Shown: positions 20,564 through 64,000, counted from the first letter of the stretch. The stretch is 64,000 nt of DNA from Candidatus Omnitrophota bacterium (GCA_037131245.1 JBAXRK010000003.1:67333-131332); one strand, 5' to 3'. The notes: generated from the letters alone by a model not told the origin. Translations and numbers: made by a program.

Positions 20564-20646
20564 TGGCATTCCGGTAAGGCATTTCGCATCGACCTCCGCT
20601 CCCTCCGGGCCCCGATAGGATCGGTTGATCATGTTTCTTCTAAGGA

Positions 20647-20702
20647 AACGCCGATAGCTCCTATGGCCAGTTGGCCATATGGCAGCTATCGGCGTTATTT
20701 TT
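20647..20702 (+). terminator. Intrinsic terminator of the ABC-F/Smr unit (long imperfect hairpin plus T-run)
   Basis: AACGCCGATAGCT (20647..20659) pairs with AGCTATCGGCGTT (20684..20696). Inner stem TATGGCCA/TGGCCATA. Followed by ATTTTT. Confidence 0.65.
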
Positions 20703-20784
20703 CAAGAATCCTATTAATGAAATACCCAAGCCCCGGGCTCTGATAGAGCCCTGGATGGCTTGGGTATGAATGGTCAAGAATCCT
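20702..20784. repeat. 46-nt near-perfect hairpin (20722..20767) flanked by an 11-bp direct repeat TCAAGAATCCT (20702..20712 and 20774..20784)
   Basis: ATACCCAAGCC (20722..20732) pairs with GGCTTGGGTAT (20757..20767). Inner stem GGGCTC/GAGCCC with a 5-nt loop. The direct repeats were read directly. Confidence 0.5.
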
Positions 20785-20796
20785 TGCCCATTCAAT

Positions 20797-20834
20797 AAAA
20801 AAAGCCCTCGGAATTCGCGGGGCTTTTCTTATTT
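20797..20834. terminator. Bidirectional-looking terminator (A-run, GC stem, T-run) downstream of micro-ORF 1
   Basis: AAAAAAA-GCCCTCG-GAATT-CGCGGGGC-TTTTCTTATTTT. On the minus strand it follows the stop of the 20-aa ORF by ~30 nt. Confidence 0.5.
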
Positions 20835-20860: not shown

Positions 20861-20923
20861 TTACTTCTTCTTCTTTTTCGCAACTTTCTTGACGGGCTTC
20901 TTAGCAGCTTTCTTAACGGCCAT
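20861..20923 (-). CDS. Micro-ORF 1: 20-aa polycationic peptide MAVKKAAKKPVKKVAKKKKK
   Basis: Strong SD (GAAAGGAGAAA) lies 8 nt before the ATG, with TATAAT (complement of 20975..20980) upstream and its own terminator downstream. The 5' and 3' contexts are paralogous to micro-ORF 2. It is below the ORF-track size cutoff. Confidence 0.5.
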   Translation of the reverse strand: MAVKKAAKKPVKKVAKKKKK

Positions 20924-21070
20924 AAGTAGTTTCTCCTTTCCTGAGGTTATGTGTTGCTTGTATTCAAACCTAAAATTATATTAACACGCGTAATGACGGA
21001 TTCAAAAAATATTTGGATTATTTTTCATTTTGATTTGTCGCGCGAAGGTTAATTGTCGACGAGAACAAAT

Positions 21071-21110
21071 AAAAAGGCTCGCGGACGTTTTTGTCGCGAG
21101 CCTTTTTTCG
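21071..21110. terminator. Bidirectional intrinsic terminator downstream of micro-ORF 2
   Basis: AAAAA-GGCTCGCG(21076..21083)...CGCGAGCC(21095..21102)-TTTTTT. An 8-bp perfect GC-rich stem flanked by A- and T-runs. Confidence 0.65.
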
Positions 21111-21123
21111 GAAAAAGAGAAAA

Positions 21124-21207
21124 TTACTTCTTCTTTTTCGCGGTTTTCTTTGCGGGAGCTTTTTTGGACATCTTGGTGGAGCACTTTTTCGTTGAGCAGC
21201 AAGGCAT
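21124..21207 (-). CDS. Micro-ORF 2: 27-aa Cys/Lys-rich peptide MPCCSTKKCSTKMSKKAPAKKTAKKKK
   Basis: SD GAAAGGAGAAA lies 7 nt before the ATG. The C-terminal codons ...GCGAAAAAGAAGAAGTAA are nearly identical to micro-ORF 1. It has its own terminator. Confidence 0.5.
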   Translation of the reverse strand: MPCCSTKKCSTKMSKKAPAKKTAKKKK

Positions 21208-21321
21208 AAGATTTTCTCCTTTCGTGTGGTTTTGTAACCTGCGATAATGATAACATCAATAGCGATTTCTTTCCATAGGCGTGTTAAATTTTGATGAAGT
21301 TGTTTGCCGGTCCGGCGGTTA

Positions 21322-22434
21322 ATGATGAATAGCACAAAACTTTCGTTATATGTCCATATTCCTTTTTGCGTGAGCAAGTGCCCTTATTGTTCTTTTGCCG
21401 TCGTGGCCGGGGCATTAAAGCATGAAGCGGCTTATGTCGCCGCCCTTGCCCGCGAGCCGTTTTCCGGACGTCCCGCGATTTCCACCATTTATATCGGCGG
21501 AGGCACACCATCCTGTTTATCGATGCGCGGCATAGAAGCCCTGTTTGAAATGATCAATGCCCGTTTTGATGTCGCGCGGGATGCTGAAGTGACATTTGAA
21601 ATGAATCCTGAAAGTGTTGATCCTGCCAAGGCGGTGTTGTTGAAACGCCTGGGTGTTAATCGCGTGAGCTTGGGTGTTCAATCTTTAAATGACCGTACCC
21701 TTGAGCTTCTGGGGCGCCCCCACCGTAACGATGATGCCCGGCGGGCTTTTAGCGTATTGCGCGCCGCCGGATTTGCCGACATCAATGTTGATATGATCTA
21801 TGGTTTGCCCGGACAGGGCGCGCGGGAGGTGCTGGCAGACCTTGGGGACCTGTTATCGTTAGGCAGTGAGCATTGTTCTTTGTACACGCTTAATGTGGAG
21901 GAGCGAAGCCTGTTCTTTGCCCGTCGCATGGAAGTGGATCCGGACGCGCAAGGAGGGCTCTACAGCGCTGTTTGTCAGGCGATGGAAGAAGCCGGCGTTA
22001 AACAGTACGAGGTCAGTAATTTCGCCCGGCCCGGCTTTGAGTCCCGCCACAACATTCACTATTGGAATGGCGGTGATTATATCGGCCTGGGGATGGCGGC
22101 GCATGCCCATCTTGCCGGTGAGCGTTCCTGGAACGCGGATACGCTGCCAAAGTATCTTGAATTGATGAAAGAAAAGGGAACGGCAAAGGTTGGCAGCGAA
22201 AGGTTGCCACCGGCTGAGAAACTGTTGGAGGTTTTTCTCTTCGGCTTGCGGATGAATCGCGGCGTTGACCTGGGTTCCCTTGAGGCGCGCTTCGGCCTGG
22301 AGTTGCCGCACGACAAGAAAGAAAAGCTGGAAAGTTTTATTGAAATGGGCTTGCTAGAGGAGGATGATACGCATATCCGGGCAACGCCCCGCGGGCGGCT
22401 TTTGCTCGATGAACTTGCCGCGAGGATCATTTAA
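21322..22434 (+). CDS. hemW: Radical SAM heme chaperone HemW / oxygen-independent coproporphyrinogen oxidase-like
   Basis: LYVHIPFCVSKCPYCSF (CxxxCxxC), GGGTPS and a HemN_C-like C-terminus. ATG 21322 is preferred over TTG 21304. Confidence 0.8.
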   Translation: MMNSTKLSLYVHIPFCVSKCPYCSFAVVAGALKHEAAYVAALAREPFSGRPAISTIYIGGGTPSCLSMRGIEALFEMINARFDVARDAEVTFEMNPESVDPAKAVLLKRLGVNRVSLGVQSLNDRTLELLGRPHRNDDARRAFSVLRAAGFADINVDMIYGLPGQGAREVLADLGDLLSLGSEHCSLYTLNVEERSLFFARRMEVDPDAQGGLYSAVCQAMEEAGVKQYEVSNFARPGFESRHNIHYWNGGDYIGLGMAAHAHLAGERSWNADTLPKYLELMKEKGTAKVGSERLPPAEKLLEVFLFGLRMNRGVDLGSLEARFGLELPHDKKEKLESFIEMGLLEEDDTHIRATPRGRLLLDELAARII

Positions 22435-22444
22435 AGAGGTCGTG

Positions 22445-23476
22445 ATGGTTTTGTTGAGAAGGTTTTTATTTATATTTGCGGTATTCGGGGCTCTTGTTAT
22501 TGCGGCAGGATGGGTGGTAGTGAACAATGCCGCCGCCATGAGTTATCTGGTACGTCAGGCGGTCGCGCGAAGCCTTAAGGCCGTTGATGTTCGTGAGTTG
22601 CGCTTCGGGTCGCTGGCGTATACCTTCCCGTCAGATTGGGCACTGAAGGATGTTCGCGCCCGTTTGGTGATTGGCCAACAGGTGCTGACGTTTACTTCCG
22701 CCCGTCTGGATATCAGCAATGCGCTCGGGTTATGTTCGATCGGTAGAGGAGCCGGCCTGTCATTGAGTGGAGCGGATGGTTTCTTTGACAAGTTGAAGGT
22801 CAATGGTATTTCCGGCCGGTTTTATCTTACGAGGACGGACCACGGGGTTTCCTACCGCGGCGATGTGTCGGCGGGCACCGTGGCTTGGGACAGGCTCGGC
22901 GTTTCAAAAGTTAAAGCAACCGTTAGCGGCGATGCCGGCCAGTTGAGCCTGCGGCAACTTCAGGCGGATGTATACGGCGGGAAGACCGCAGGCAAGGCTA
23001 TGGTCGCCTTTGGACGAGTTCCTCGGTATGAAGTCAGTGCCGTAGTCGAGAAGGCCGATATCGGCCAGCTGGACAGGGTTCTTGGCGGCGTTTTTCATGA
23101 GCTGGGTGGCACTCTCTCCGGCCGGGTCCGCCTGGCCGGTTCCGGTCCACAGATCGATGGCCTGGACATGAACTGGGACATGCCCTCTGGCGGCAAGGTG
23201 AGCGCGGCGCTTTTGTCGTCGATCGCGACCTACCTTCCGGCATCCCAGGAAAAGAAACGTATTGATTCCCTGATCCGCAGCGGAGGAAAGCTTGCGGTTG
23301 AGGTTTTTTCGTTTACAATAAAGAACGATGCGCCCGATCATCTGAGCGGTGAGATCGGGCTTAAAAGCCGGGAAGCGAATCTGGAGCTCCATATTACGCA
23401 CGAAGTGAAAGTGGACGCCCGGATCGATTCATTACTTCAGGCCTGGTCGGCTGTGTTCAAACAGGAGAGAATATGA
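22445..23476 (+). CDS. AsmA-like / YdbH-like membrane-anchored protein (compact, 343 aa)
   Basis: N-terminal TM helix FLFIFAVFGALVIAAGWVVV, then beta-rich repeats with the AsmA-type pattern (LQADVYGGKTAGKAMV..., LGGTLSGRVRLAGSG). The call rests mainly on synteny with the ynbE-like and ydbL-like genes downstream. Confidence 0.5.
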   Translation: MVLLRRFLFIFAVFGALVIAAGWVVVNNAAAMSYLVRQAVARSLKAVDVRELRFGSLAYTFPSDWALKDVRARLVIGQQVLTFTSARLDISNALGLCSIGRGAGLSLSGADGFFDKLKVNGISGRFYLTRTDHGVSYRGDVSAGTVAWDRLGVSKVKATVSGDAGQLSLRQLQADVYGGKTAGKAMVAFGRVPRYEVSAVVEKADIGQLDRVLGGVFHELGGTLSGRVRLAGSGPQIDGLDMNWDMPSGGKVSAALLSSIATYLPASQEKKRIDSLIRSGGKLAVEVFSFTIKNDAPDHLSGEIGLKSREANLELHITHEVKVDARIDSLLQAWSAVFKQERI

Positions 23477-23652
23477 GATCATTAGCGGTATTGTTGTTGC
23501 TGGCGTTCTGCGCCGGGTGCACGGTGAAAGCGATCGGGGATCCTAACCGCCCGATCACCATTAACGCGCATATCACGATCGATATCAAGGGGCTCGAGAA
23601 AACGGCGTCGGGCATTGAGGATTTTGTCAGCGGCGGAGCAGCCAATAAGTGA
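23473..23652 (+). CDS. ynbE: YnbE-like small lipoprotein (59 aa)
   Basis: MRSLAVLLLLAFCAGC carries a lipobox (L-A-F-C-A-G-C), followed by TVKAIGDPNRPITINAHITIDIKG. ATGA overlap with the upstream gene. It is below the ORF-track cutoff. Confidence 0.6.
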   Translation: MRSLAVLLLLAFCAGCTVKAIGDPNRPITINAHITIDIKGLEKTASGIEDFVSGGAANK

Positions 23653-23696
23653 GCGAAGCGAGTTGGCTGCGACGTCCCGGACACTGTTTGTCCGGG
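23632..23696. repeat. 65-nt two-hairpin repeat, copy A (covers the last 6 codons and stop of ynbE)
   Basis: GGCGGAGCAGCCAATAAGTGAGCGAAGCGAGTTGGCTGCGACGTCCCGGACACTGTTTGTCCGGG. It matches copy B at 60 of 65 positions. Stems are GCAGCCAA/TTGGCTGC and CCCGGAC/GTCCGGG. Confidence 0.85.
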
Positions 23697-23729
23697 GCGG
23701 AAAATAAAAAATTTACGGAGAGAATTTCT

Positions 23730-24131
23730 ATGAAAAAGATCATCATGGCGGTTTTATTGACGGGATTGCTTTCGACAGCGGCTTTTGCCCAAACGTATGA
23801 TATTAAAGAGATGACTCCCGCGGTCAAGGCCGCGCTGGAAAGCCGTAAGTCCCGGTTCAGCGAGCTGAAGGCGCTTAAAGCGCAGGGCGTGGTGGGTGAG
23901 AATAACCACGGGTATGTGCAGGCCCTTTCCGGTGGTTCCGACGCGAAAGCACTGGTTGCCGCCGAAAATAAGGACCGTAAGTTCGTTTACCAGGCGATCC
24001 TGGAACAGAACGGGCTGGATGCCGGGGCGCTCGAGACGGTCGAGATGGTTTTCGGCAAGGTGCAGCGCGGTAAGGCCTCTTCGGGAGAGAAAGTCCAGGA
24101 CGAAAACGGGAATTGGCGGAGCAGCCAATAA
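23730..24131 (+). CDS. ydbL: YdbL-like periplasmic protein (DUF1318)
   Basis: Signal peptide MKKIIMAVLLTGLLSTAAFA. GYVQAL...VAAENKDRKFVYQAILEQNG matches the DUF1318 pattern. ATG 23730 with RBS GGAGAG. Confidence 0.7.
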   Translation: MKKIIMAVLLTGLLSTAAFAQTYDIKEMTPAVKAALESRKSRFSELKALKAQGVVGENNHGYVQALSGGSDAKALVAAENKDRKFVYQAILEQNGLDAGALETVEMVFGKVQRGKASSGEKVQDENGNWRSSQ

Positions 24132-24179
24132 GCGAGTGAAACGAGTTGGCTGCGACGTCCCGGACCCTGTTAGTCCGGG
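24115..24179. repeat. 65-nt two-hairpin repeat, copy B (covers the last codons and stop of ydbL and abuts the stop of the convergent polyprenyl synthase gene)
   Basis: GGCGGAGCAGCCAATAAGCGAGTGAAACGAGTTGGCTGCGACGTCCCGGACCCTGTTAGTCCGGG. All five differences from copy A fall in predicted loops. Confidence 0.85.
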
Positions 24180-24182
24180 AAA

Positions 24183-25256
24183 TTAAGCGTAGCGCTTGGC
24201 AATATTGATCGACTGATCGAAGAATTTAAACAGAGCCTCCGCCACCAGCTCTTTCTGGCGGGGGTTCATTTTTAGCGCCGCGAGCTGTTTTCTTGCTTTT
24301 GTTACCCGCACATTGACGGCATTAAGCGCGTAATGCAGGCTTCCGGCTTTGATCAGGAGCAGCTTGATCGCTTCAAGATCGGCCAGCTTTTTGTTCTTCT
24401 TTGTGAAGATGTTCTTAAGATCCCGCAAGTCCTTCCCCTGAAGTTTTTCGAAGGCATGAACGATCAGGAGTGTTTTTTTCTGCTCTTCCAGGTCACTTAA
24501 GATCGATTTCCCGATGGATTCTTCCGTCTCAAATATACCGATGATGTCATCCTGGATCTGAAAGGCCTGGCCGATGCATAGGCCGAAGTCGGCGATCTTG
24601 GGGATCTCGGTTTTTGGCGCTCCGGCAAGGATCGCGCCCGTTACCAGGGGACAGTCAAAGGTGTAGCGCGCGGTTTTCAGCGAATAGTTCAGGAAGACGT
24701 CCTTTTCGTGGACTTGCTTGACATCCACCACCCCGTGGACGGTATCGACGAATTCTCCCATGGCGGTAAAAGCCGCGGTCTGGATGAAATATTTCAGGGC
24801 TTGTTCCTTGCGCAGCGGGTCTTCGTTGATCGACAGGAACGCGTCGATGGCCAGCGCGTAGGTGATGTCACCGGCGATGATGGCCAGGTCAACGCCGAGC
24901 TTGTCGGGGTTGGCGCAGGGGACGGTCTTATTGAGGATGCGGTGCATGGTGGGCTTGCCGCGCCGCAGGTCCGAGCAGTCGATAATATCGTCGTGGATCA
25001 GCATAAAATTATGCAGGAACTCGATGCAGGTCGAGGCATTGTAAAGCGAGCGGGTCGGCCGGCGGCCTTTAGGTGAATAGCCCAGATAGCCCAGGATGAG
25101 CAGGATGGGGCGGATGCGCTTGCCTTCGCGTAAGGAGAATTCGCGGATGCTTTTGTGGAGGATGGGGTTGACCAGGTGCAGTTTATATTCTTTGGCCACA
25201 TGGTCGAGAAAAAGGCCGATGCTCGTGTCGATCTCTTTTTTAAAGGTGTCTAACAT
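24183..25256 (-). CDS. Polyprenyl diphosphate synthase (trans-IPPS)
   Basis: First Asp-rich motif LIHDDIID and second motif FQIQDDIIG, 357 aa. Confidence 0.85.
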   Translation of the reverse strand: MLDTFKKEIDTSIGLFLDHVAKEYKLHLVNPILHKSIREFSLREGKRIRPILLILGYLGYSPKGRRPTRSLYNASTCIEFLHNFMLIHDDIIDCSDLRRGKPTMHRILNKTVPCANPDKLGVDLAIIAGDITYALAIDAFLSINEDPLRKEQALKYFIQTAAFTAMGEFVDTVHGVVDVKQVHEKDVFLNYSLKTARYTFDCPLVTGAILAGAPKTEIPKIADFGLCIGQAFQIQDDIIGIFETEESIGKSILSDLEEQKKTLLIVHAFEKLQGKDLRDLKNIFTKKNKKLADLEAIKLLLIKAGSLHYALNAVNVRVTKARKQLAALKMNPRQKELVAEALFKFFDQSINIAKRYA

Positions 25257-25332
25257 GGGTTATCCTTGATATCTGTTGACCTTATGCTGAATTGTTTTAC
25301 AATCACACTATAACTTAACCATGGAGGGTGAC

Positions 25333-26034
25333 ATGAAGAAATTTTTATTTTTTGCGCTATTCCTGCTTGTGACTGCCAGTATCGCCTGTTCCGGGGCCGG
25401 AGCGGAGACGATCTACCTGAAGAGCGGCGCGACAGCGACCGGCAAGATCGTTCAAAAGACCGACGCCAGCGTGGTCATTGATATTGGCGGCGCCAGCGTG
25501 ACGTATTACAAAGATGAGATCGACCGTATTGATGATGCGGCGCCTGCCGCACCCGCGGCTGCCGTTCCAGCTCCTGCGGCGCCCGTTGCTGTTGCGCCTG
25601 CCGTGCCCGCTTCCGTAGCGGCCGCTGTGGCGACCGATCAGCCCGCCGGTACGATAAGTCCCTCCAAGCACGACCTGATCATGAAATTCGTCGATGTTTT
25701 TGGCACCCGTGCCAGCATGAAGGCGAATTTTGAGCAGATGATGTCGTCCCTTTCGCCGGAAGAATCCGCCAAACTGCGCGGCGCGTTTAATGTTGACGAT
25801 ATCATCGAACAGCTCGTGCCTCTTTACGACAAGTATTTCACGGAGGCGGATCTGACGGCTTTTGTAAATTTCTACGGTTCAGCTGACGGGAAAAAACTGG
25901 TTTCAACCATTCCGCAGATCATGCGCGGGAGCGTTGAGGTCAGCGCCAAGTATTTTGAATCCCATATGCCCGAGGAGTTCAAGAAGGGCGTGGCGGCCAA
26001 GGAGGCTGGCGCGGCGCCGGCTGCGGCGAAATAA
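25333..26034 (+). CDS. Secreted DUF2059-like protein with an Ala/Pro-rich linker
   Basis: RBS GGAGG before ATG 25333 and signal peptide MKKFLFFALFLLVTASIACSGAGA. The low-complexity linker is APAAPAAAVPAPAAPVAVAPAVPA. The C-terminus YFTEADLTAFVNFYGSADGKKL is typical of DUF2059. Confidence 0.6.
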   Translation: MKKFLFFALFLLVTASIACSGAGAETIYLKSGATATGKIVQKTDASVVIDIGGASVTYYKDEIDRIDDAAPAAPAAAVPAPAAPVAVAPAVPASVAAAVATDQPAGTISPSKHDLIMKFVDVFGTRASMKANFEQMMSSLSPEESAKLRGAFNVDDIIEQLVPLYDKYFTEADLTAFVNFYGSADGKKLVSTIPQIMRGSVEVSAKYFESHMPEEFKKGVAAKEAGAAPAAAK

Positions 26035-56205: not shown

Positions 56206-59200
56206 TTGATCCGATTCCGGAAGTGTATCTCAGTCATTCTATTGTGTGTATTCGTAGCGTCCGAGATCCTCGGGCGCTCCGGGAATGCGTTTGCGTCCGT
56301 GCCATTGCCTTCGGCGATCCCCATGGTCGCGCTGACGGCCCCGTTCCATCCCGTTATCCTCCAGGGCCTGCAATTCGATCCTGCTGATCCACTGAAAGTC
56401 GATTTTATCGTTGATGAAGGTGATCGCGCTAATGCCGGTCAAGCGGCATTTGAAGCCGAGACCGCGCAACTGGCCAAATATTTTTTGGCCGGGCTGACTC
56501 TTCCCCGAGGTGATCTGTGGGTGAACCTATCGCCTTACGAAGGCGAGCGGATCATCCCCGAGGCGCTGGGCCAGACAGGGCTCGGTAAAGTTTTCCTTGA
56601 ACAGGATTATCTTCTTAAGAACCTGACCGCCAGCCTGATCCATCCCGATAGCGAGACCGGCAAGCGTTTTTGGGCTGAGGCATATAAGCAGGCCTATGAA
56701 AAGTTAGGCACGACGGATATTCCAGTCGACACCTTTAATAAAGTCTGGATCATCCCCGAAAAGCCTGTGGTGTATGAAAAGCCGGGTGCTTCGCATGTAG
56801 CTTATATCGTCGACGCCCGGTTAAAAGTGATGCTGGACAGCGATTATCTGGCGCAGATAAAGAATGTTGTCTCCGACACCAGTATTTCCAAACAAGCCCT
56901 GCGCGACATTATTGTTCCTATCATCGAAAAAGAAGTCAACGAAGGCGCGGGGTTTGCTCCGTTGCGCCAGGCCTATCAGGCGCTTATTTTGGCCGGATGG
57001 ATGAAAGGAAAAATGAGTTCGGCCGGTGGGTTACTGGCTGGCGGTTATATCAATTTGAACAAGACGGCCGGCGTTGAGCACGGCGAGCAGGGCTTGAAGG
57101 ATCGTGTTTGGAACGCCTATCTTGAAGCGTTCCAAAAGGGCGTGTTTAATTTTATCCGTGAAGAAAAAGATCCGGCAACGGATGAGGTCCTCCCGCGCAA
57201 GTATTTCTCCGGCGGGTTCGATTTTGACGCGGCGGAAACGCCTTTAATAGTCGGCGCGTTACAGGCCCCGCTTTCGGGGTCACGCAAAAAGGTGACCTTT
57301 CGGTTTGATCCGCTGCGGGAGTTATCGAAGGCTTCTGGCCTTTCGGCCGTCGCAGCCGCGTCCCGGGAAGTGCCGTGGTCTTTTCTGGATGCCGAAGGGT
57401 ATGAAGCCCGCCAGCTCTTGAGCCGTTCCGGTGAGGATGCTCCGGAACTGCTGATCGTGACGCTCCGTCAGCACGGGTCGACGGTCCCTGACGCCAACAT
57501 TATCTTTGAGTTGTTCCCGCAACAGAAGCTTATCCGTTCCAAGATCTTCATGCCTGCCTTTCCTAAAGACGGCACCGATCGGTCGCCGGCGCTTTTGCGG
57601 CATATTTTTGAGGAGGGGGGATTTGCCGGTTGGCGTTTTTTGGCCAATGCAGCGCCTTCCCAGGCCCGTTCGCTGGCAGCCATGACTGATTTTAAGGTAG
57701 AAATTTCACCTGGGTTCCTGGGCCTAGAGCGTCGCGCGGCATTCAAGCCGGCGGTCAAGGCCGCGACACAAAGCGTGGTGTCCGGTCACGGCCCGGGCCA
57801 GTCTTTGCTGCGGGCGATCAAGGAGTCGAATGTTTTCGGGATCATCCCCGGCAACGTTGATCCGGCCCAGCGTGATGCGGCCGAGAGCACGCGCAAGGAG
57901 CTGGTCAATGACCTGATGGCAAGAGCCAAGCGGGTTCAGGCGGGGTTTAATATTCCGTTTTTACATATGGAGCCGGTGTTTCGTCATATTTTCGCCAATG
58001 GGCTGCTGCGGATGAGGCTGATGTCGGACGCGCTCGAACTCCGGGTGGAACCCGAGTTCCTAAGGCAGATATTGCAAGGACTGGAGAGCGAATTTAACAT
58101 CATTGACGAATTGCTCACGACCTTTAGTGATCCTGATCTGGCGTTTGTGTGGGCCCGTGGGTATATCCGTCATTATGATCAGAACGCCGCCAATAGCGGG
58201 CAGGGGCGAGACCTTTACGGCGCGGCGAAGCTCTTTGTTGACGGGCAGGGAACGAAGCGCTTGGCCGCGATCGCGGTGGATATGCGCGAGCTTAGCCGTG
58301 TCTGGAAAGAAAACACCGCTTCGCTGCATGCCGATGTTACCCGGCTCCTGGTATTGTCCGGTGAGCCCTATCAGATTGTTTTTTCTTCTTCAGCTCGAAA
58401 GTTCATCCCGGTAAGCGGAGAGCTGACGTCAGAAATTTTCAAGAAACGGGAGACGATCAATTTGCAGGACGCGCAGGACGGGGATTTTGTGTACCATCCC
58501 AGGATAGCCGTTGGATTTTCCACGCTCGCGGTGCGGGGGCTGGTCGATGAGGATGTGCACGGCGGCGCCAACAAGGATTTTCGTCATTGGGAATGGCTTC
58601 TGGACGGGGCTATATGGGAGCTGCTTAAGAACGCCCATCAGGGCCGGTACGGCCGCAAGGACGGGATCAAGAATGTCAGCGTGGAAGTGAGCGTTGCGGC
58701 AGAGGTGCTCAGGATCATTATTAAGGACGACGGGGAGGGGATGGACCGCGGGTATTTTGAACTTCTCAGGCGCGGCAGGGACGCCGTCAAGGAGGTATCG
58801 ACGAAAGAGTTCACTGATATCCATGGCCAGGGGCTCGGGGTCGGGGATAGTATTTTGCATCTTAACCAGATCGGCGGTACCGTCAGGATCGATAATCGCC
58901 CACAGGAGGATTTTCCGAAGGATCACGGGGTGACGTATACCATCGAGATCCCGGTTGCCGCCTCTTCGGTGAACGCCGCTGAAATGACAGCCGCGGCGCG
59001 GAAGGTTTTGCTGAGAAAGTTCGACGAAATGTTCAAGTCTTTCTTTGCGGGCAGAGAGCTTCTTTTGGCGAAGCTAGGCCGGGCCGACGAGCCTCTCTAT
59101 CGTCCGTTCATGGAGGCGGCCGATCATGTGTCGCAGGACGCGATGGCGCTCAATTTCTTTGGGGCCCTTCTAAGGGGGCAGGGTCCTGGACCGGCAGTGG

Positions 59201-61809
59201 ATGATTGGGAAAAACTTAACCGTGATATGGTGAGATTCAAGGCGGATGTTGAGGCCATTTTTGTGGAACCTCAGGGTTTGCGGTCCTGGGCCGCTGCGTA
59301 TATGTCGGTAACGAAAAAGGATGACGCAAGCTTGCGCAGCGAACTGGCACGATTTATCCTCAAGGATCGTGCGGGGGAGTGGAATAATCCGGCGTTCTCT
59401 AAAGCATGGTTGACTTACCGGCGGATGTTCGATTCAAGTTGGAAGGAATTCCGCGATGTCTTCAATGCGTATAAACCGGCGGGCGTGGCGGGTATTGACG
59501 CGGCCGAGGGAGTTGAGCCAGGCCGTGAGGCGCTGGTCATTGAGTTGCTGAAAGCACTTCGCGAGATCGACCGGTTCCCGGGCGGCATTGCGTCGTTCCC
59601 CAAATTGTTCCAGTCCGTTGTGCACGGAGCGGTGACGCCTTTTGTGGCCGGGTATCTTTTGGAGGAAATGCCGTCGAACGCGATCGCCTATGAGAAGAGC
59701 GCGTCGGGCACGTGGCAGGAGGTCAGCCTTTCGCGCCTGAAGGCGATGCCCGGGGCTTTTGCTTCCCGTGTTGATATTTATGCCATGCCCTCAAAGATCT
59801 CAGGCATTGTTCCCGCCGTGGTCCTTATTTCGGACGCCGCCGAGAAGTTCACCGATCCCGACGCGTATGATCAGCGCCTGATGATGACGCCGACCCAGGC
59901 ATTGGCGCGGTCTTTGTGGTTCGATCCGGAGCATTTGGGGCTCGCCGACCTGGCTTTTGAGAAAATGATCAAGGCATCCGTGCAGCATTACCTGGCGTTG
60001 AGAAGTTGGGTGCCGCAAGATGACCTTCGGGTAGCCGCAAAAGAGATCATGATGACGCTGGGGCTTAACCGGGAGGCGTTTAACCGGCGCTTCTTTGCGG
60101 ATAACCTTTGGGCGCTTGATATCGGCGATCATCAGATCCTGATAAAGAAGTACTCTGGATTGTGTTTCGATTATTCGAAATTTATAGCGTCCCAGGACGG
60201 CAGTCCTTTCGGGATCCCTAATGAAGTGCGGGGGCATCTTTATTTCTTGCTTGGCGTTGAGTTCATGCATTTGAGGGACGCGTTCTCTAGCCTGATCCTG
60301 GCGATGGGGCGTGAGCACTGGAATGGGGTCAATGGGCATTTGGGGGCACTTAGGGGCGCCATTAAGTCTTACAGCCCCGCGGACGATATCCTTAAGCGCG
60401 TTGGTGACCTCCAGGACAGCGTCACGCGCGCCGAGGGGGCCCTTTATCGCCGGCAAATGCCGCGGGTCCTTTTTGAGACGGATGAATTCCTGAAAACGGC
60501 CCTGCGGGCTTTGGCGCATTCCGAAAAATTGACGGTGGAGGCCCGGCATGAGCTTGTCAGCGGCTTTGTTGTTTCCGCCGAACTTATCGACCGGGTCATT
60601 GATCTGCGCGAGCCGGTCCGTGATGAAAGCGAGGCGCAGCTGGCGTCGCGTCTCTACGCCGAGAAGCAGGCGATGAAATTGTACGAAAATCTTCAGGGGA
60701 TCGAGATCAGGCTGTTTGCCGGGCTAGAGCCCGAAGCGGATCGTTCACAGTCTTTGGCGGCATCGGCTCATCCGCCGATGACGCAAGATATGATGACCTG
60801 GCCGGAGCATGTTCGCGACCGGGCGCGGGTCCTGGAGGCCGGGGGGCGTCATATCGCTGCCGCACGGGATGGTTCTCCGCTTCGGTATCTTAAGGCGGCT
60901 TTTGTCCCTTACGAGGAGACGGTCTCATCTTCCAGGCAGGATATTTATGATGCGGATGAACGGGCCGTCAGCAAGTTTGGCCCGGTGCGCAACAGGATCA
61001 ATCTTTGGGCTAATGATCAGGATGCCCGCCTGCTGATCCTGGAACTGGTCAGAGACGTAGAGGCGGGAACTCCCCTGATCGACGAGAAAGACTTCTTGGA
61101 CCGGCTCAATGCTATTAATATCGCTTTGATCAAGAGCGCGGTGCCGGATGAAGAGAATTATTATTACAGCCGGATGTTTTTTAATCGGACGCTGTTGGAA
61201 AAGATATCGGGGATCGATCGTATCGCGGGGAAAATGCTCACGCCGGCGTTGACACTCGGGCGTTCGGGGCGGCTTTTGGTCCAGTTCAAGCGTTTGATCA
61301 ATGAGATCGAGCATCGCGACCAGTATTCGATGGATTCGTTCCTTGATGCGCTGGAGGCCTTTTACCGGGAGATCATGCGCGGGCAAAGCGGCGAGGATGA
61401 GTTCTTGTTCAAGTCCGGGAATAATTCGCTGGCGATGAACATGGTCAATGCCTTCCTGCGGTTGAACGGGTTGAAGGGGATATCTCACGGCGACCTTGAG
61501 TTTAACGTCCGTGCCGGTCAGCAGGCGGGTTTGCGGGAGGCGTTCAAGCGGCAGATCCAGCAGGCCAATAGCGCGCTGGATTGGACCGCGCCGGCCAAGG
61601 GGCAGGTTGACCGGGCTGAGGCTCCTAATGGAGGTATTGACCTTGGGGCTGCCCTCGCTCCTGTTACACAAGGAGATGTAGGTTCAGGTGACGTTCTTGC
61701 GATGCCGATGACAGCTGATGCGGGCGCTTTGCTTGGTTTTTCGCCGGTCTTGATCGGGATCAAACCGATCGATGACCTTCCTTCGATCTTAGGCCTTTCA
61801 GGAAAATAA
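56206..61809 (+). CDS. Giant (1867-aa) secreted multidomain protein with a conserved N-module, a GHKL-type ATPase core and a degenerate Fic-like motif
   Basis: TTG start with AAGGGA upstream. Signal peptide MIRFRKCISVILLCVFVASEILGRSGNAFA. The N-module (nt 56206..~57220) is paralogous to the next gene. GHKL boxes lie at nt ~58578..58955 (ELLKNA; IIKDDGEGM; HGQGLGVG; TYTIEIP). A Fic-like motif lies at nt ~61402..61470 (FLFKSGNNSLAMNMVNAFLRLNG). The C-terminal tail reads GGIDL...GFSPVLIGIKPIDDLPSILGL. Confidence 0.75.
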   Translation: MIRFRKCISVILLCVFVASEILGRSGNAFASVPLPSAIPMVALTAPFHPVILQGLQFDPADPLKVDFIVDEGDRANAGQAAFEAETAQLAKYFLAGLTLPRGDLWVNLSPYEGERIIPEALGQTGLGKVFLEQDYLLKNLTASLIHPDSETGKRFWAEAYKQAYEKLGTTDIPVDTFNKVWIIPEKPVVYEKPGASHVAYIVDARLKVMLDSDYLAQIKNVVSDTSISKQALRDIIVPIIEKEVNEGAGFAPLRQAYQALILAGWMKGKMSSAGGLLAGGYINLNKTAGVEHGEQGLKDRVWNAYLEAFQKGVFNFIREEKDPATDEVLPRKYFSGGFDFDAAETPLIVGALQAPLSGSRKKVTFRFDPLRELSKASGLSAVAAASREVPWSFLDAEGYEARQLLSRSGEDAPELLIVTLRQHGSTVPDANIIFELFPQQKLIRSKIFMPAFPKDGTDRSPALLRHIFEEGGFAGWRFLANAAPSQARSLAAMTDFKVEISPGFLGLERRAAFKPAVKAATQSVVSGHGPGQSLLRAIKESNVFGIIPGNVDPAQRDAAESTRKELVNDLMARAKRVQAGFNIPFLHMEPVFRHIFANGLLRMRLMSDALELRVEPEFLRQILQGLESEFNIIDELLTTFSDPDLAFVWARGYIRHYDQNAANSGQGRDLYGAAKLFVDGQGTKRLAAIAVDMRELSRVWKENTASLHADVTRLLVLSGEPYQIVFSSSARKFIPVSGELTSEIFKKRETINLQDAQDGDFVYHPRIAVGFSTLAVRGLVDEDVHGGANKDFRHWEWLLDGAIWELLKNAHQGRYGRKDGIKNVSVEVSVAAEVLRIIIKDDGEGMDRGYFELLRRGRDAVKEVSTKEFTDIHGQGLGVGDSILHLNQIGGTVRIDNRPQEDFPKDHGVTYTIEIPVAASSVNAAEMTAAARKVLLRKFDEMFKSFFAGRELLLAKLGRADEPLYRPFMEAADHVSQDAMALNFFGALLRGQGPGPAVDDWEKLNRDMVRFKADVEAIFVEPQGLRSWAAAYMSVTKKDDASLRSELARFILKDRAGEWNNPAFSKAWLTYRRMFDSSWKEFRDVFNAYKPAGVAGIDAAEGVEPGREALVIELLKALREIDRFPGGIASFPKLFQSVVHGAVTPFVAGYLLEEMPSNAIAYEKSASGTWQEVSLSRLKAMPGAFASRVDIYAMPSKISGIVPAVVLISDAAEKFTDPDAYDQRLMMTPTQALARSLWFDPEHLGLADLAFEKMIKASVQHYLALRSWVPQDDLRVAAKEIMMTLGLNREAFNRRFFADNLWALDIGDHQILIKKYSGLCFDYSKFIASQDGSPFGIPNEVRGHLYFLLGVEFMHLRDAFSSLILAMGREHWNGVNGHLGALRGAIKSYSPADDILKRVGDLQDSVTRAEGALYRRQMPRVLFETDEFLKTALRALAHSEKLTVEARHELVSGFVVSAELIDRVIDLREPVRDESEAQLASRLYAEKQAMKLYENLQGIEIRLFAGLEPEADRSQSLAASAHPPMTQDMMTWPEHVRDRARVLEAGGRHIAAARDGSPLRYLKAAFVPYEETVSSSRQDIYDADERAVSKFGPVRNRINLWANDQDARLLILELVRDVEAGTPLIDEKDFLDRLNAINIALIKSAVPDEENYYYSRMFFNRTLLEKISGIDRIAGKMLTPALTLGRSGRLLVQFKRLINEIEHRDQYSMDSFLDALEAFYREIMRGQSGEDEFLFKSGNNSLAMNMVNAFLRLNGLKGISHGDLEFNVRAGQQAGLREAFKRQIQQANSALDWTAPAKGQVDRAEAPNGGIDLGAALAPVTQGDVGSGDVLAMPMTADAGALLGFSPVLIGIKPIDDLPSILGLSGK

Positions 61810-61910: not shown

Positions 61911-64000
61911 ATGTTCAAACGCCTGTCCGCAGCCGTTATTTTGCTGACATTTACCGCAAGCTCTCTTCTGGGGCCGAATGCCGCTTATGCCCAGGCGCTT
62001 TTTCTGCCTGAGCCAGGCACGATGGTGCAGGCTAGTCCTTCATTTGAACCCCTTATGATCAAAGGGCTTACGACCCATCCGGAAAATCCTCTTCTATTTG
62101 ATTTTATCATGGACACCGGCAATACCGGCCTTCAGGCCGATATGGCCGACCCTGTTTTGAAAGCGGAATCCGAGAAACTGATCAAATATTTTCTGGCTTC
62201 CCTGGCTATTCCTGATCAGGACCAGTGGGTGAACCTTTCGCCTTATGAAGGCAATCGCATTTTGCCTGACTCTTTAGGGAAAACGGAATTGGGCCGCGAT
62301 ATGCTGGCGCAGGATTATGTGCTTAAGCAGGTGACGTCTTCTTTTATTTATCCGGAAAAAGAATTAGGCAAGGCTTTTTGGGCGAAAGTGTATGAGCGGG
62401 CCCAGAAAGAATTCGGCGTTACGGATATTCCCATGGATGTGCTTAACAAGGTATGGATCACGGCGGAGAGCGCGTCGGTTTACGTGAAGGGCAATAATGC
62501 TTTTGTGTCGGACAGCCATTTGAAGGTTCAGCTGGAAAGCGATTATCTGGCGATGAAGCAGCAGGCACCGGCCGTACAGGATGAGCGTTCCAGCGCGATC
62601 AGCAAGCAGGTCATCCGCGAGATCGTCCTGCCCGAGCTTGAAAAGGAAGTGAACGCGGGGCAGAATTTCTCGCCGCTGCGCCAGATATTTCACAGCATGA
62701 TCCTGGCGGTTTGGTACAAAAAGAATTTGAAAGAGGCTCTTTTGTCGCAGGTTTACGCCGATCGCGCGAAGACCGGCGGCGTGGAAGGTGCCTGGACTTT
62801 GGCAAAAGGCGCGGAGGTTGACCCCGAGCAGATCTACGCTAAATATGTGCAAGCGTTCCAGAAGGGCGTGTTCAACTACATTAGGGAAGACGCCGATCAG
62901 GTTACCGGCGAGATGATCCCCCGTAAGTATTTTTCGGGTGGTATTCATGTGCCGGATGTTAAAGTTTCAGGCTTGCCCGGTGAGAGCGCTCAGTCGACGG
63001 GCCGTGCCTTGCGGGTTAAAGGTGAGTTCCGTGATGCCTCGCAGGGCGCTAAAGTCCCGGTGATCTCTCTGGGGGCGCCGGTAGAGGAAGCGACGCCGGG
63101 GTATTTCACGGTCCCTATCACGATCCCGGAGGGTGTGGATAATGCCAACGGGCGTCTCAATGACCTGGTGAAGGATTTATGGTCGAGTTACAGCCGGACG
63201 CGCAGGAATTTTTATGTGACGGTTAATTGGACGCCGGGGCGTAATGTGTTGAGCATTGGTGAGAACGTTCCTTCGGGGTTGAACGGCAGCCTGGTGCGCT
63301 GGAAGGAAAAACAATTGGCGGATATCAACACGTTGCTGCGCCAGGGGCGTGAGATGCTTGATGCCGCGCAGCATGATGCATCGCAAATGATCCGTTCCGA
63401 CGATATGATCACCCCCGATAAGGATAGCGCGTTATGGCTTTTTGGAGAGGATTTGGGTAAAGTTTTGCAGCCTGTTCTGACTTCCCTGGCGAGCAAACTT
63501 GAGCCTATTGTTCGTGCTAGTTCTTTAAACTCCCTTGGTTTGGAAAATTATACTGCTCATGGCTATTTTCTTAAGCAGCTGACGTCCAGCCATGCTGGGG
63601 AGAATATTTCCCATATGGTCCGAATGGTTCAGATGGATCATACGATCCATAATGATGTAGACGGCAAAGCGATCCTCAAGATCTTTATCGCGGCTCGGTA
63701 TGTGTGGCAGAAGAACTATACGACGATCGATGACCGCCGGATCGAAGTGCCTGATGCGGTGATCGGCATCCTGATCGACTATTTTAATCGTCAGTTCGAG
63801 AAAGATGAAGATGCCGTGGATCGTATCGTGGCAGCCTATCACGAGGCGTACGATAAGCGGAATCAGGACATTGGTTATGCGGTGAATTACGATGATTACA
63901 AAACTGGCTTTGCGGGGATGCTGGCGGATGCTCGTAATTATTACGATTGGTTTGCTCCCTTTCTGGATAAGGAAGCTAAGGCGGCTTTGAAGGCGGCTAC
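61911..64000 (+). CDS. Second large secreted protein (over 696 aa, 3' end beyond the window), paralogous in its N-terminal ~340 aa to the 1867-aa protein
   Basis: My hand translation from ATG 61911 (RBS GGAG) is open to the window edge, which is presumably why it is missing from the ORF track. Signal peptide MFKRLSAAVILLTFTASSLLGPNAAYA. Shared motifs are WVNLSPYEG, AQDYVLK, LNKVWI, SPLRQ, FQKGVFNYIRE and PRKYFSGG. Confidence 0.75.
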   Translation, partial: MFKRLSAAVILLTFTASSLLGPNAAYAQALFLPEPGTMVQASPSFEPLMIKGLTTHPENPLLFDFIMDTGNTGLQADMADPVLKAESEKLIKYFLASLAIPDQDQWVNLSPYEGNRILPDSLGKTELGRDMLAQDYVLKQVTSSFIYPEKELGKAFWAKVYERAQKEFGVTDIPMDVLNKVWITAESASVYVKGNNAFVSDSHLKVQLESDYLAMKQQAPAVQDERSSAISKQVIREIVLPELEKEVNAGQNFSPLRQIFHSMILAVWYKKNLKEALLSQVYADRAKTGGVEGAWTLAKGAEVDPEQIYAKYVQAFQKGVFNYIREDADQVTGEMIPRKYFSGGIHVPDVKVSGLPGESAQSTGRALRVKGEFRDASQGAKVPVISLGAPVEEATPGYFTVPITIPEGVDNANGRLNDLVKDLWSSYSRTRRNFYVTVNWTPGRNVLSIGENVPSGLNGSLVRWKEKQLADINTLLRQGREMLDAAQHDASQMIRSDDMITPDKDSALWLFGEDLGKVLQPVLTSLASKLEPIVRASSLNSLGLENYTAHGYFLKQLTSSHAGENISHMVRMVQMDHTIHNDVDGKAILKIFIAARYVWQKNYTTIDDRRIEVPDAVIGILIDYFNRQFEKDEDAVDRIVAAYHEAYDKRNQDIGYAVNYDDYKTGFAGMLADARNYYDWFAPFLDKEAKAALKAA

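Follow-up and report, generated by a model that had tools for sequence, protein, structure and literature searches.

By analogy, the repeat described here would work most like two kinds of known element, the REP elements of bacteria and the double-hairpin or repetitive hairpin elements of mitochondria. The REP, BIME and REPIN sequences of proteobacteria, which are mobilised by RAYT, are short GC-rich hairpins that lie at or after stop codons in operons and carry no U-tract. REP/RAYT units are imperfect palindromes of 20-40 nt with a GTAG-like head, often arranged as inverted doublets and dispersed in tens to hundreds of extragenic copies per genome, and the cognate RAYT gene (for an IS200-like Y1 transposase) is itself usually flanked by REPs. 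On transcripts, REP hairpins stabilise the upstream mRNA by impeding 3' exonucleases, and a REP that lies no more than about 15 nt from a stop codon is reported to lower translation (Liang, Rudd and Deutscher, 2015). The mitochondrial elements, namely the DHEs of Allomyces, the RHEs of sponges and the GC clusters of yeast, are tiny (about 30-90 nt), consist of hairpins only, derive from AT or GC clusters and are present many times in each genome. Mitochondrial hairpin elements are also lineage-specific, are seen through the empty sites of relatives and sit at tolerant gene spots or gene ends, in keeping with what is described for compact genomes, where elements that form hairpins can become fixed almost nowhere except at tolerant positions within genes or beside them (PMC2800124).

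Two groups of transposable elements are also relevant. IS607 elements, which use a serine transposase, have no terminal inverted repeats, make no clear target duplication and show GG at the target and at the junctions (PMC4058570, PMC6188088), and each of their ends requires subterminal repeats of about 40 bp (PMC6188088). MITEs such as Correia, RUP and Nezha are small non-autonomous folding insertions that can alter gene ends and be co-transcribed, and they make a target duplication of fixed length. Here we describe a bacterial double hairpin, present at the ends of two adjacent genes, that we place among the small insertion repeats that form hairpins, a broad class already known.

The two copies lie within a 64,000-nt stretch of a Candidatus Omnitrophota genome (the window; positions are counted from its first nucleotide), at a locus that reads hemN-like, AsmA-like, ynbE-like and ydbL, with a polyprenyl synthase gene next to ydbL on the opposite strand, in convergent orientation. 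The AsmA-like gene, in the position of ydbH (22445..23476, plus strand, 343 aa), is syntenic in all relatives and matches the Pfam AsmA model weakly (E = 7.8e-5, under the curated cut-off); its stop overlaps the start of the next gene (ATGA). This next gene (23473..23652, plus strand, 59 aa, TGA at 23650-52) encodes a small lipoprotein-like product without a match to Pfam or NCBIfam models, which shows the PITIN-type core of YnbE and is 30% identical to the E. coli YnbE sequence. We call it ynbE-like because of its gene position, its lipoprotein-like N-terminus and this identity. The assignment of ydbL (23730..24131, plus strand, 133 aa, TAA at 24129-31) comes from the DUF1318 model (Pfam PF07027, E = 6.5e-19) and a match to the PDB entry 28oj, "chaperone-like protein YdbL" (E = 4.6e-8); the product agrees at every residue with NCBI MEI6437496.1, a protein of a Candidatus Omnitrophota MAG. 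Its ribosome-binding site, as read from the sequence, is GGAGAG at 23717..23722 (plus strand), at the position of ACGAGG in one relative (L009). The polyprenyl synthase gene (24183..25256, minus strand; Pfam PF00348, E = 1.1e-54) is 82-87% identical to its counterparts in relatives. Overall, every one of the 57 window ORFs scanned with Pfam has a housekeeping role, for instance in purine synthesis or as a chaperone or sensor kinase.

A repeat search of the window returned one direct repeat of 65 nt, at 23632-23696 and 24115-24179, whose copies are 483 nt apart and identical at 60/65 positions (92%), in agreement with the coordinates and match count given in the initial annotation. The differences between copy 1 and copy 2 are T/C at 23650, C/T at 23654, G/A at 23658, A/C at 23683 and T/A at 23689. 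Aligned in full, the copies occupy 66 columns (23632..23697 and 24115..24180, both on the plus strand), and the leading GG of each belongs to the host, being ancestral sequence at 23632-33 and the end of a conserved Trp codon at 24115-16. The 64 kb contain exactly two occurrences of each hairpin pattern, GCAGCCAA-N17-TTGGCTGC and CCCGGAC-N7-GTCCGGG, all of them within the repeat copies, and shuffled sequence gave about 0.3-0.4 matches even with 2-3 mismatches permitted.

The source genome was assembled from a metagenome, and a short repeat may be an error of assembly, so that a chimeric or mis-joined repeat, arising in assembly or binning, has to be weighed. Against this, a Logan assembly of run SRR12676967, which is independent, is identical across 861 nt containing both copies, which argues that the repeat is not an assembly artefact. 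The longest exact stretch common to the two copies is only 24 nt (with 5-6 differing positions), and they are therefore unlikely to have been confused in assembly; all flanking genes are moreover intact and syntenic. We thus regard an artefact as exceedingly improbable.

Six independent syntenic loci from relatives (L005, L007, L009, L014, L016 and L018) share the order hemN, AsmA-like, ynbE, ydbL and convergent polyprenyl synthase, with YdbL 72-81% identical to that of the window, and lack the element at both sites: no hairpin was found at either site in any of the six, and a covariance model built on the two copies returned nothing significant there. In these relatives ynbE encodes 55-56 aa and ends in SG(G)K before the stop (e.g., agcggaaaaTAA or agcggcgggaaaTAG), and the gap between ynbE and ydbL is 10-29 nt, vs. 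77 nt in the window. Their ydbL ends ...NWN before the stop (tggaatTAA) and abuts the convergent gene, with a 4-nt overlap in L016 and L018. Nearly all full-length proteins among the 93 YdbL homologues listed end in W, WN, W plus 3 residues or a close variant, and none of the 93 ends in WRSSQ. The prospect, raised in the initial annotation, that orthologous ynbE and ydbL genes might finish with the same codons as those of the window is thus not borne out.

The insertion boundaries were set against the empty sites of the six relatives. On this basis, the inserted unit spans 23634-23697 in copy 1 (CGGAGC...GTCCGGGG) and 24117-24180 in copy 2 (CGGAGC...GTCCGGGA), both on the plus strand. Subtraction of the ancestral sequence leaves a unit of identical length (64 nt), in register, at both sites, and the limits of insertion and of repeat agree within 0-2 nt. 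Both insertions lie after GG, 1-2 codons ahead of the old stop, and the old gene ends are still legible downstream. The ynbE relic (23696..23707, plus strand) reads GGC GGA AAA TAA (G G K stop), now out of frame; it matches, as GGCGGAAAATAA directly 3' of copy 1, the agcggcgggaaaTAG and agcggaaaaTAA ends of L005 and L009, and is followed, as in L009, by aaaaatttacg(g/a)g (aaaaatttacgg...) and the ATGAAAAAG leader. The ydbL relic, AAT TAA (N stop; 24181..24186, plus strand), stands directly 3' of copy 2, and the TTA within it (24183-85) still provides the stop codon of the convergent polyprenyl synthase. That the two copies are insertions, with the ancestral last codons and stops downstream of them, had been missed by the initial annotation.

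In the YdbL tree, the window is nested among the relatives, as sister to L009 and then to L005 and L007, and since these relatives are element-free, a gain in the lineage of the window is the parsimonious explanation. A deletion in the relatives instead was rejected given this nesting and the relic stops kept in the window, and so was a horizontal replacement of ydbL, since the genes of the locus show an even level of identity to the relatives, without an outlier. At the level of sequence comparison, both copies are clean insertions of one discrete 64-nt unit at the extreme 3' ends of genes, and the element reads as no ancestral part of the operon.

As 64 is not a multiple of three, each insertion shifted its gene out of frame. 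The unit however carries stops within its first 21 nt (TGA in one frame, TAA in another), and these early stops in two forward frames re-terminate each gene after four new codons. The ynbE-like product accordingly ends ...GGAANK, with its last four codons (AANK) and TGA taken from the insertion, and YdbL ends ...NWRSSQ, with the last four codons (RSSQ) and TAA of the same origin. Each gene stops within its copy of the repeat, the two reading it in different frames, and on this point the ORFs agree with the initial annotation, which had both genes ending inside the element in different frames and the repeat supplying their C-terminal codons and stops. The insertions affected neither the ribosome-binding site of ydbL, which is untouched, nor the convergent gene, which insertion 2 left whole.

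To what extent such a unit recurs bears directly on its nature. Searches with the stem patterns (allowing mismatches), blastn-short and the covariance model found no third copy in the 64-kb window, where the two-copy covariance model run with filters off gave a next best hit of 10.6 bits (E about 1). Nor did one turn up in 185,579 GTDB species genomes (the source species evidently not being among the representatives), in JGI metagenomes, or in viral contigs, plasmids and phages. The stem-pattern search returned three matches in GTDB, in coding sequence, and four in JGI; all are regarded as chance matches because they fall in unrelated sequence and lack the second hairpin. A comparison of the concatenated open-frame translations of the element with 5.8 billion proteins gave no match, a weak negative as intergenic copies would escape it. 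Rfam models gave no match at E <= 1 in 21000-26000, nor at gathering score across the window, and the Pfam scan of the 57 window ORFs showed no transposase, recombinase or reverse-transcriptase domain. The element is hence neither a high-density REP, which would recur several times in 64 kb, nor a widespread family with these stems. The many randomly scattered copies that the initial annotation had considered as a sign of a generic REP were not seen, as no third copy turned up anywhere searched.

We lean, somewhat beyond an even judgement, towards a lineage-specific, REP/MITE-like double-hairpin insertion, non-coding and 64 nt long (62 nt plus a GG junction), which was copied locally and whose effects on RNA are probably incidental. 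This candidate element combines two GC-rich hairpins that differ from each other, and its two copies share one orientation. It would have entered one site and then been copied as a discrete unit to the other, 483 nt away, which would imply a transposition-like or site-specific copy-and-paste in trans. Because the insertion limits equal the repeat limits at both sites, a defined unit appears to have been copied rather than an arbitrary stretch, and this coincidence of boundaries speaks for a mechanism that is transposition-like or site-specific and acts in trans, more than for random template switching. GG lies to the left of both copies, with GG (copy 1) or GA (copy 2) to the right, such that GG occupies 3/4 junctions, which may resemble exchange at a GG dinucleotide. 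The apparent "capping" of two genes would then reflect survivorship, in that a compact genome would tolerate such insertions almost only at gene ends: the spacers of the relatives at both junctions together span only -4 to 29 nt, so that other landing places would nearly always be gene-destroying. A like argument is found in the literature for hairpin elements of compact organelle genomes (PMC2800124). Counting against mobility are the absence of transposase and recombinase domains from the 57 window ORFs scanned, the lack of terminal inverted repeats, a GG "junction" of just 2 nt, the GA at one of the four junctions, and a known copy number of two, with both copies in one operon.

The small number of copies also bears on another route, by which a one-off foreign or de novo hairpin segment, and not a mobile element, would have been duplicated in a transposase-free, local copying accident, either when replication switched templates or during repair mediated by microhomology (GG at the left edge, AA at the right). 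Hairpins promote template switching. Consistent with such an accident, only two copies exist in everything searched, at this short distance and in the same orientation, the window is without a transposase, and both targets share short microhomology with the edges of the element (GG/CGGA in ynbE). However, the limits of copy 2 exactly match those of insertion 1 (64 vs. 64 nt), with no host flank carried along. A discrete unit should behave in this way, whereas a template switch at arbitrary points should not, and the origin of the first copy remains unexplained by this route. We therefore consider a copying accident unlikely, and return below to the insertion of a discrete element.

Both copies are predicted to fold into the two hairpins that the initial annotation had described, as borne out by stem patterns and predicted folds alike. 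In copy 1, hairpin 1 (23638..23670, plus strand) pairs GCAGCCAA with TTGGCTGC (23638-45 / 23663-70) around a 17-nt loop, which contains the ynbE TGA (23650-52) and a TAA in the ydbL-type frame, and hairpin 2 (23676..23696, plus strand) has the stem CCCGGAC/GTCCGGG, extended to 11 pairs (23673-83 / 23689-99) in the minimum-free-energy fold. In copy 2, the corresponding hairpins lie at 24121..24153 (stem 24121-28 / 24146-53, with the ydbL TAA at 24129-31 in the loop) and 24159..24179 (stem 24159-65 / 24173-79), again on the plus strand. The predicted RNA folds of 79 nt with both hairpins reach -38.3 kcal/mol for copy 1 and -33.4 kcal/mol for copy 2 (z-scores of -5.5 and -3.8, with 0/200 shuffles as stable), and folding the same hairpins as DNA gives about -18 kcal/mol.

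The differences between copies affect 5/24 loop positions vs. 0/30 stem positions. Assuming uniform change, and as a post hoc test, the exact probability that all five fall in the 24 loop positions out of 65 is 0.0051, which upholds the below-1-percent chance of the initial annotation; under the same assumption, and likewise post hoc, the exact probability of no difference in the 30 stem positions is 0.039. One of the differing sites, 23650, is the first base of the ynbE stop codon. Two others, 23683 and 23689, close the loop of hairpin 2; copy 1 has an A-U pair there and copy 2 a C/A mismatch, so that these differences disrupt a pair and are not compensatory. The loop-only pattern is real, and is compatible with a constraint on the hairpins and equally with a mutational bias toward single-stranded loops. 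If the former, the stems would be kept since the element depends on its hairpins, be it for moving as DNA or for the stability of its RNA.

Once transcribed, such an element is expected to have the same effects on RNA as a REP, with upstream mRNA protected from exonucleases and nearby terminating ribosomes disturbed. By this analogy, the hairpins on the mRNA would probably block 3'-to-5' exonucleases, and ribosomes terminating inside hairpin 1, in whose loop the stops lie, would probably be hindered. These effects are probably by-products and not the reason for the presence of the element.

Another reading would have the double hairpin, whatever its origin, selected as a cis-regulatory RNA and kept for tuning operon expression and the YnbE:YdbL ratio, whether by stabilising the ydbH-ynbE segment against exonucleases, by serving as a processing site, or by lowering translation of the gene that ends in hairpin 1; copy 2 could also insulate ydbL from the convergent gene. 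The confinement of all five differences to loops (p = 0.005 and 0.039), the very stable predicted structures and the location of both copies in a single operon where tuning would make sense are in line with such a role. So is the importance of YdbL dose in E. coli, where a yhdP tamB double mutant is killed by surplus YdbL if YdbH and YnbE do not rise with it, and where YnbE relies on its C-terminal helix and YdbL on its C-terminal residues (PMC13464000). However, the six syntenic relatives conserve nothing of the element and manage with a short, unstructured ynbE-ydbL gap, the two copies in one genome give no covariation test and differ in a way that breaks a pair of hairpin 2, and the loop-only change may come from a higher mutability of unpaired loop bases.

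On these sequence comparisons a selected role in operon stoichiometry, without comparative support, seems doubtful. The suggestion in the initial annotation of an operon-tied RNA motif that sets the stoichiometry of three proteins fails the refuting test that the annotation itself had set, namely an absence of stem conservation or covariation in relatives: the six have neither element nor hairpin, and so offer nothing in which stems could be compared. A conserved RNA motif specific to the ydbH-ynbE-ydbL operon was for the same reason rejected, as was membership in any Rfam family, for which no covariance model matched.

How then does the discrete inserted element compare with the systems outlined above? 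The REP-like character proposed in the initial annotation holds in that REPs are its nearest known class, though neither the GTAG head nor the single palindrome of the REP/RAYT type is there. Instead, the element joins two unrelated hairpins in tandem (GCAGCCAA and CCCGGAC), with two copies in 64 kb as opposed to a dispersed multitude, no RAYT gene among the 57 window ORFs, and no sequence similarity to anything searched; REP/RAYT membership was rejected for the missing GTAG head and the unlike hairpins. The mitochondrial elements are alike in size, composition, lineage specificity and placement, and differ in being organellar and multi-copy, whereas the element is bacterial, present in two copies and shares no sequence with them.

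With IS607, the element has in common the absence of inverted repeats and a GG on the left of each copy and on the right of copy 1. Ends of about 40 bp, however, cannot fit into its 62-64 nt, one junction is GA, and the Pfam scan of the 57 window ORFs found neither a serine recombinase (Resolvase) nor a TnpB domain, such that an IS607-type link is a lead only. MITE membership was rejected for want of terminal inverted repeats, the 5' end CGGAGCAGCC and the reverse complement of the 3' end CGGACAAACA agreeing at 6/10 positions with only CGGA shared. The target-site duplication, of fixed length in MITEs, is here at most 2 nt and ambiguous (GG up to GGCGGA for copy 1, GG...GA for copy 2, with zero equally possible), and only two copies are known. 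It is nonetheless conceivable that we are looking at an undescribed, ultra-small bacterial mobile element (62 nt plus GG) made of two unlike hairpins with its own stops, which moved in trans at GG and was co-opted as a REP-like stabiliser of the YnbE:YdbL ratio or as a translation brake, a combination that we consider very improbable.

Several other classes were rejected. An integron attC site or cassette is contradicted by GTTGGCT, which does not fit GTTRRRY, and AGCCAAT, which does not fit RYYYAAC, by the absence of an integrase from the window ORFs scanned, and by a ydbL that is syntenic and repeat-free in six relatives. The VR/TR pair of a DGR is excluded by differences (T/C, C/T, G/A, A/C, T/A) that are not confined to template adenines, with no reverse transcriptase in the window, and a CRISPR-like reading by sequence criteria and synteny.

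Broadly speaking, the finding is real but modest, being lineage-private, limited to two copies and without evidence of function. If our reading is right, it offers a clean case of a tiny hairpin element that rewrote the C-termini and stops of two adjacent genes without breaking them, in the compact genome of a candidate phylum where such elements are not known to have been described, and it would explain the apparent capping of genes, gene ends being the only positions where such elements survive. The lipid bridge that YdbH, YnbE and YdbL form in E. coli responds to the dose of YdbL and to changes at the C-terminal regions of both YnbE and YdbL (PMC13464000), and both of these sensitive features are altered here, which does not imply that the change is adaptive. 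For annotation, the lesson would be that the ...AANK and ...RSSQ tails are insertion-derived and not features of their families.

Lastly, the copies resemble intrinsic terminators in presenting a GC-rich hairpin at a gene end, copy 2 even lying between convergent genes, whereas copy 1 is found within an operon, upstream of the ydbL ribosome-binding site. As the initial annotation had already concluded from the lack of a U-tract, neither is a plain intrinsic terminator: the sequence that follows is GCGGAAAAUAAAAAAUUUACGG for copy 1 and AAAUUAAGCGUAGC for copy 2, there is no U-tract on either strand, and a terminator scan lists neither copy. Hairpin-plus-U terminators are present in the window at about 20790-20830 and 21065-21110.

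The two copies of the 64-nt double-hairpin element, which end the ynbE-like gene and ydbL, respectively, differ at three positions in the loop of their first hairpin (23649-23660 in copy 1 vs. 24132-24143 in copy 2), and these differences lie at an exact 4-nt spacing. They correspond to an exchange of two adjacent GNRA-like tetramers: copy 1 reads GTGA-GCGA, copy 2 GCGA-GTGA. This swap shifts a TGA between reading frames, so that the pair of frames containing a stop differs between the two copies.

Downstream of copy 2, the junction at which ydbL meets the convergent polyprenyl synthase gene can be compared with two syntenic relative loci lacking the element (L016 and L018). In both relatives, the two genes overlap by 4 nt (1893-1896 in each locus) through a common AATTAA, which provides the stop codons on both strands, and no terminator lies between them. 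In the window, this hexamer is retained as a relic past the copy 2 insertion (24181-24186, of which 24183-24186 correspond to the 4-nt overlap).

Upstream of both copies, the gene in the ydbH position (22445-23476) is a short, fast-evolving AsmA-like partner: its product is only 343 aa long (vs. ~879 aa for E. coli YdbH), has only a sub-threshold AsmA match, and is 45–53% identical among relatives, the neighboring genes being 70–90% identical in these same relatives.

Downstream of the Smr-domain gene, the intergenic region carries two further hairpins (20635-20708 and 20725-20764). At −24.7 and −28.2 kcal/mol per 40 nt, they rank among the most stable local hairpins found anywhere in the window. 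A search against Rfam (E ≤ 1) returned only chance-level matches for these hairpins (terminator-like and miRNA-type families). The pair may represent a bidirectional terminator cluster or a structured RNA that has so far escaped annotation. On the reverse strand, two tiny ORFs rich in lysine, MAVKKAAKKPVKKVAKKKKK (20861-20923) and MPCCSTKKCSTKMSKKAPAKKTAKKKK (21124-21207), lie in tandem and could encode small basic proteins. A strong ribosome-binding site of the AGGAG type precedes each ORF, and each has a separate canonical hairpin-plus-U terminator after it; their 3' parts form a 45-nt direct repeat (73% identical).

Finally, the coding segments 56812-57215 and 62511-62941 are paralogous (70–76% identical). 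Based on this paralogy, a tandem paralogue of the giant HATPase_c-containing protein (1867 aa, 56206-61809) appears to begin near the window end.
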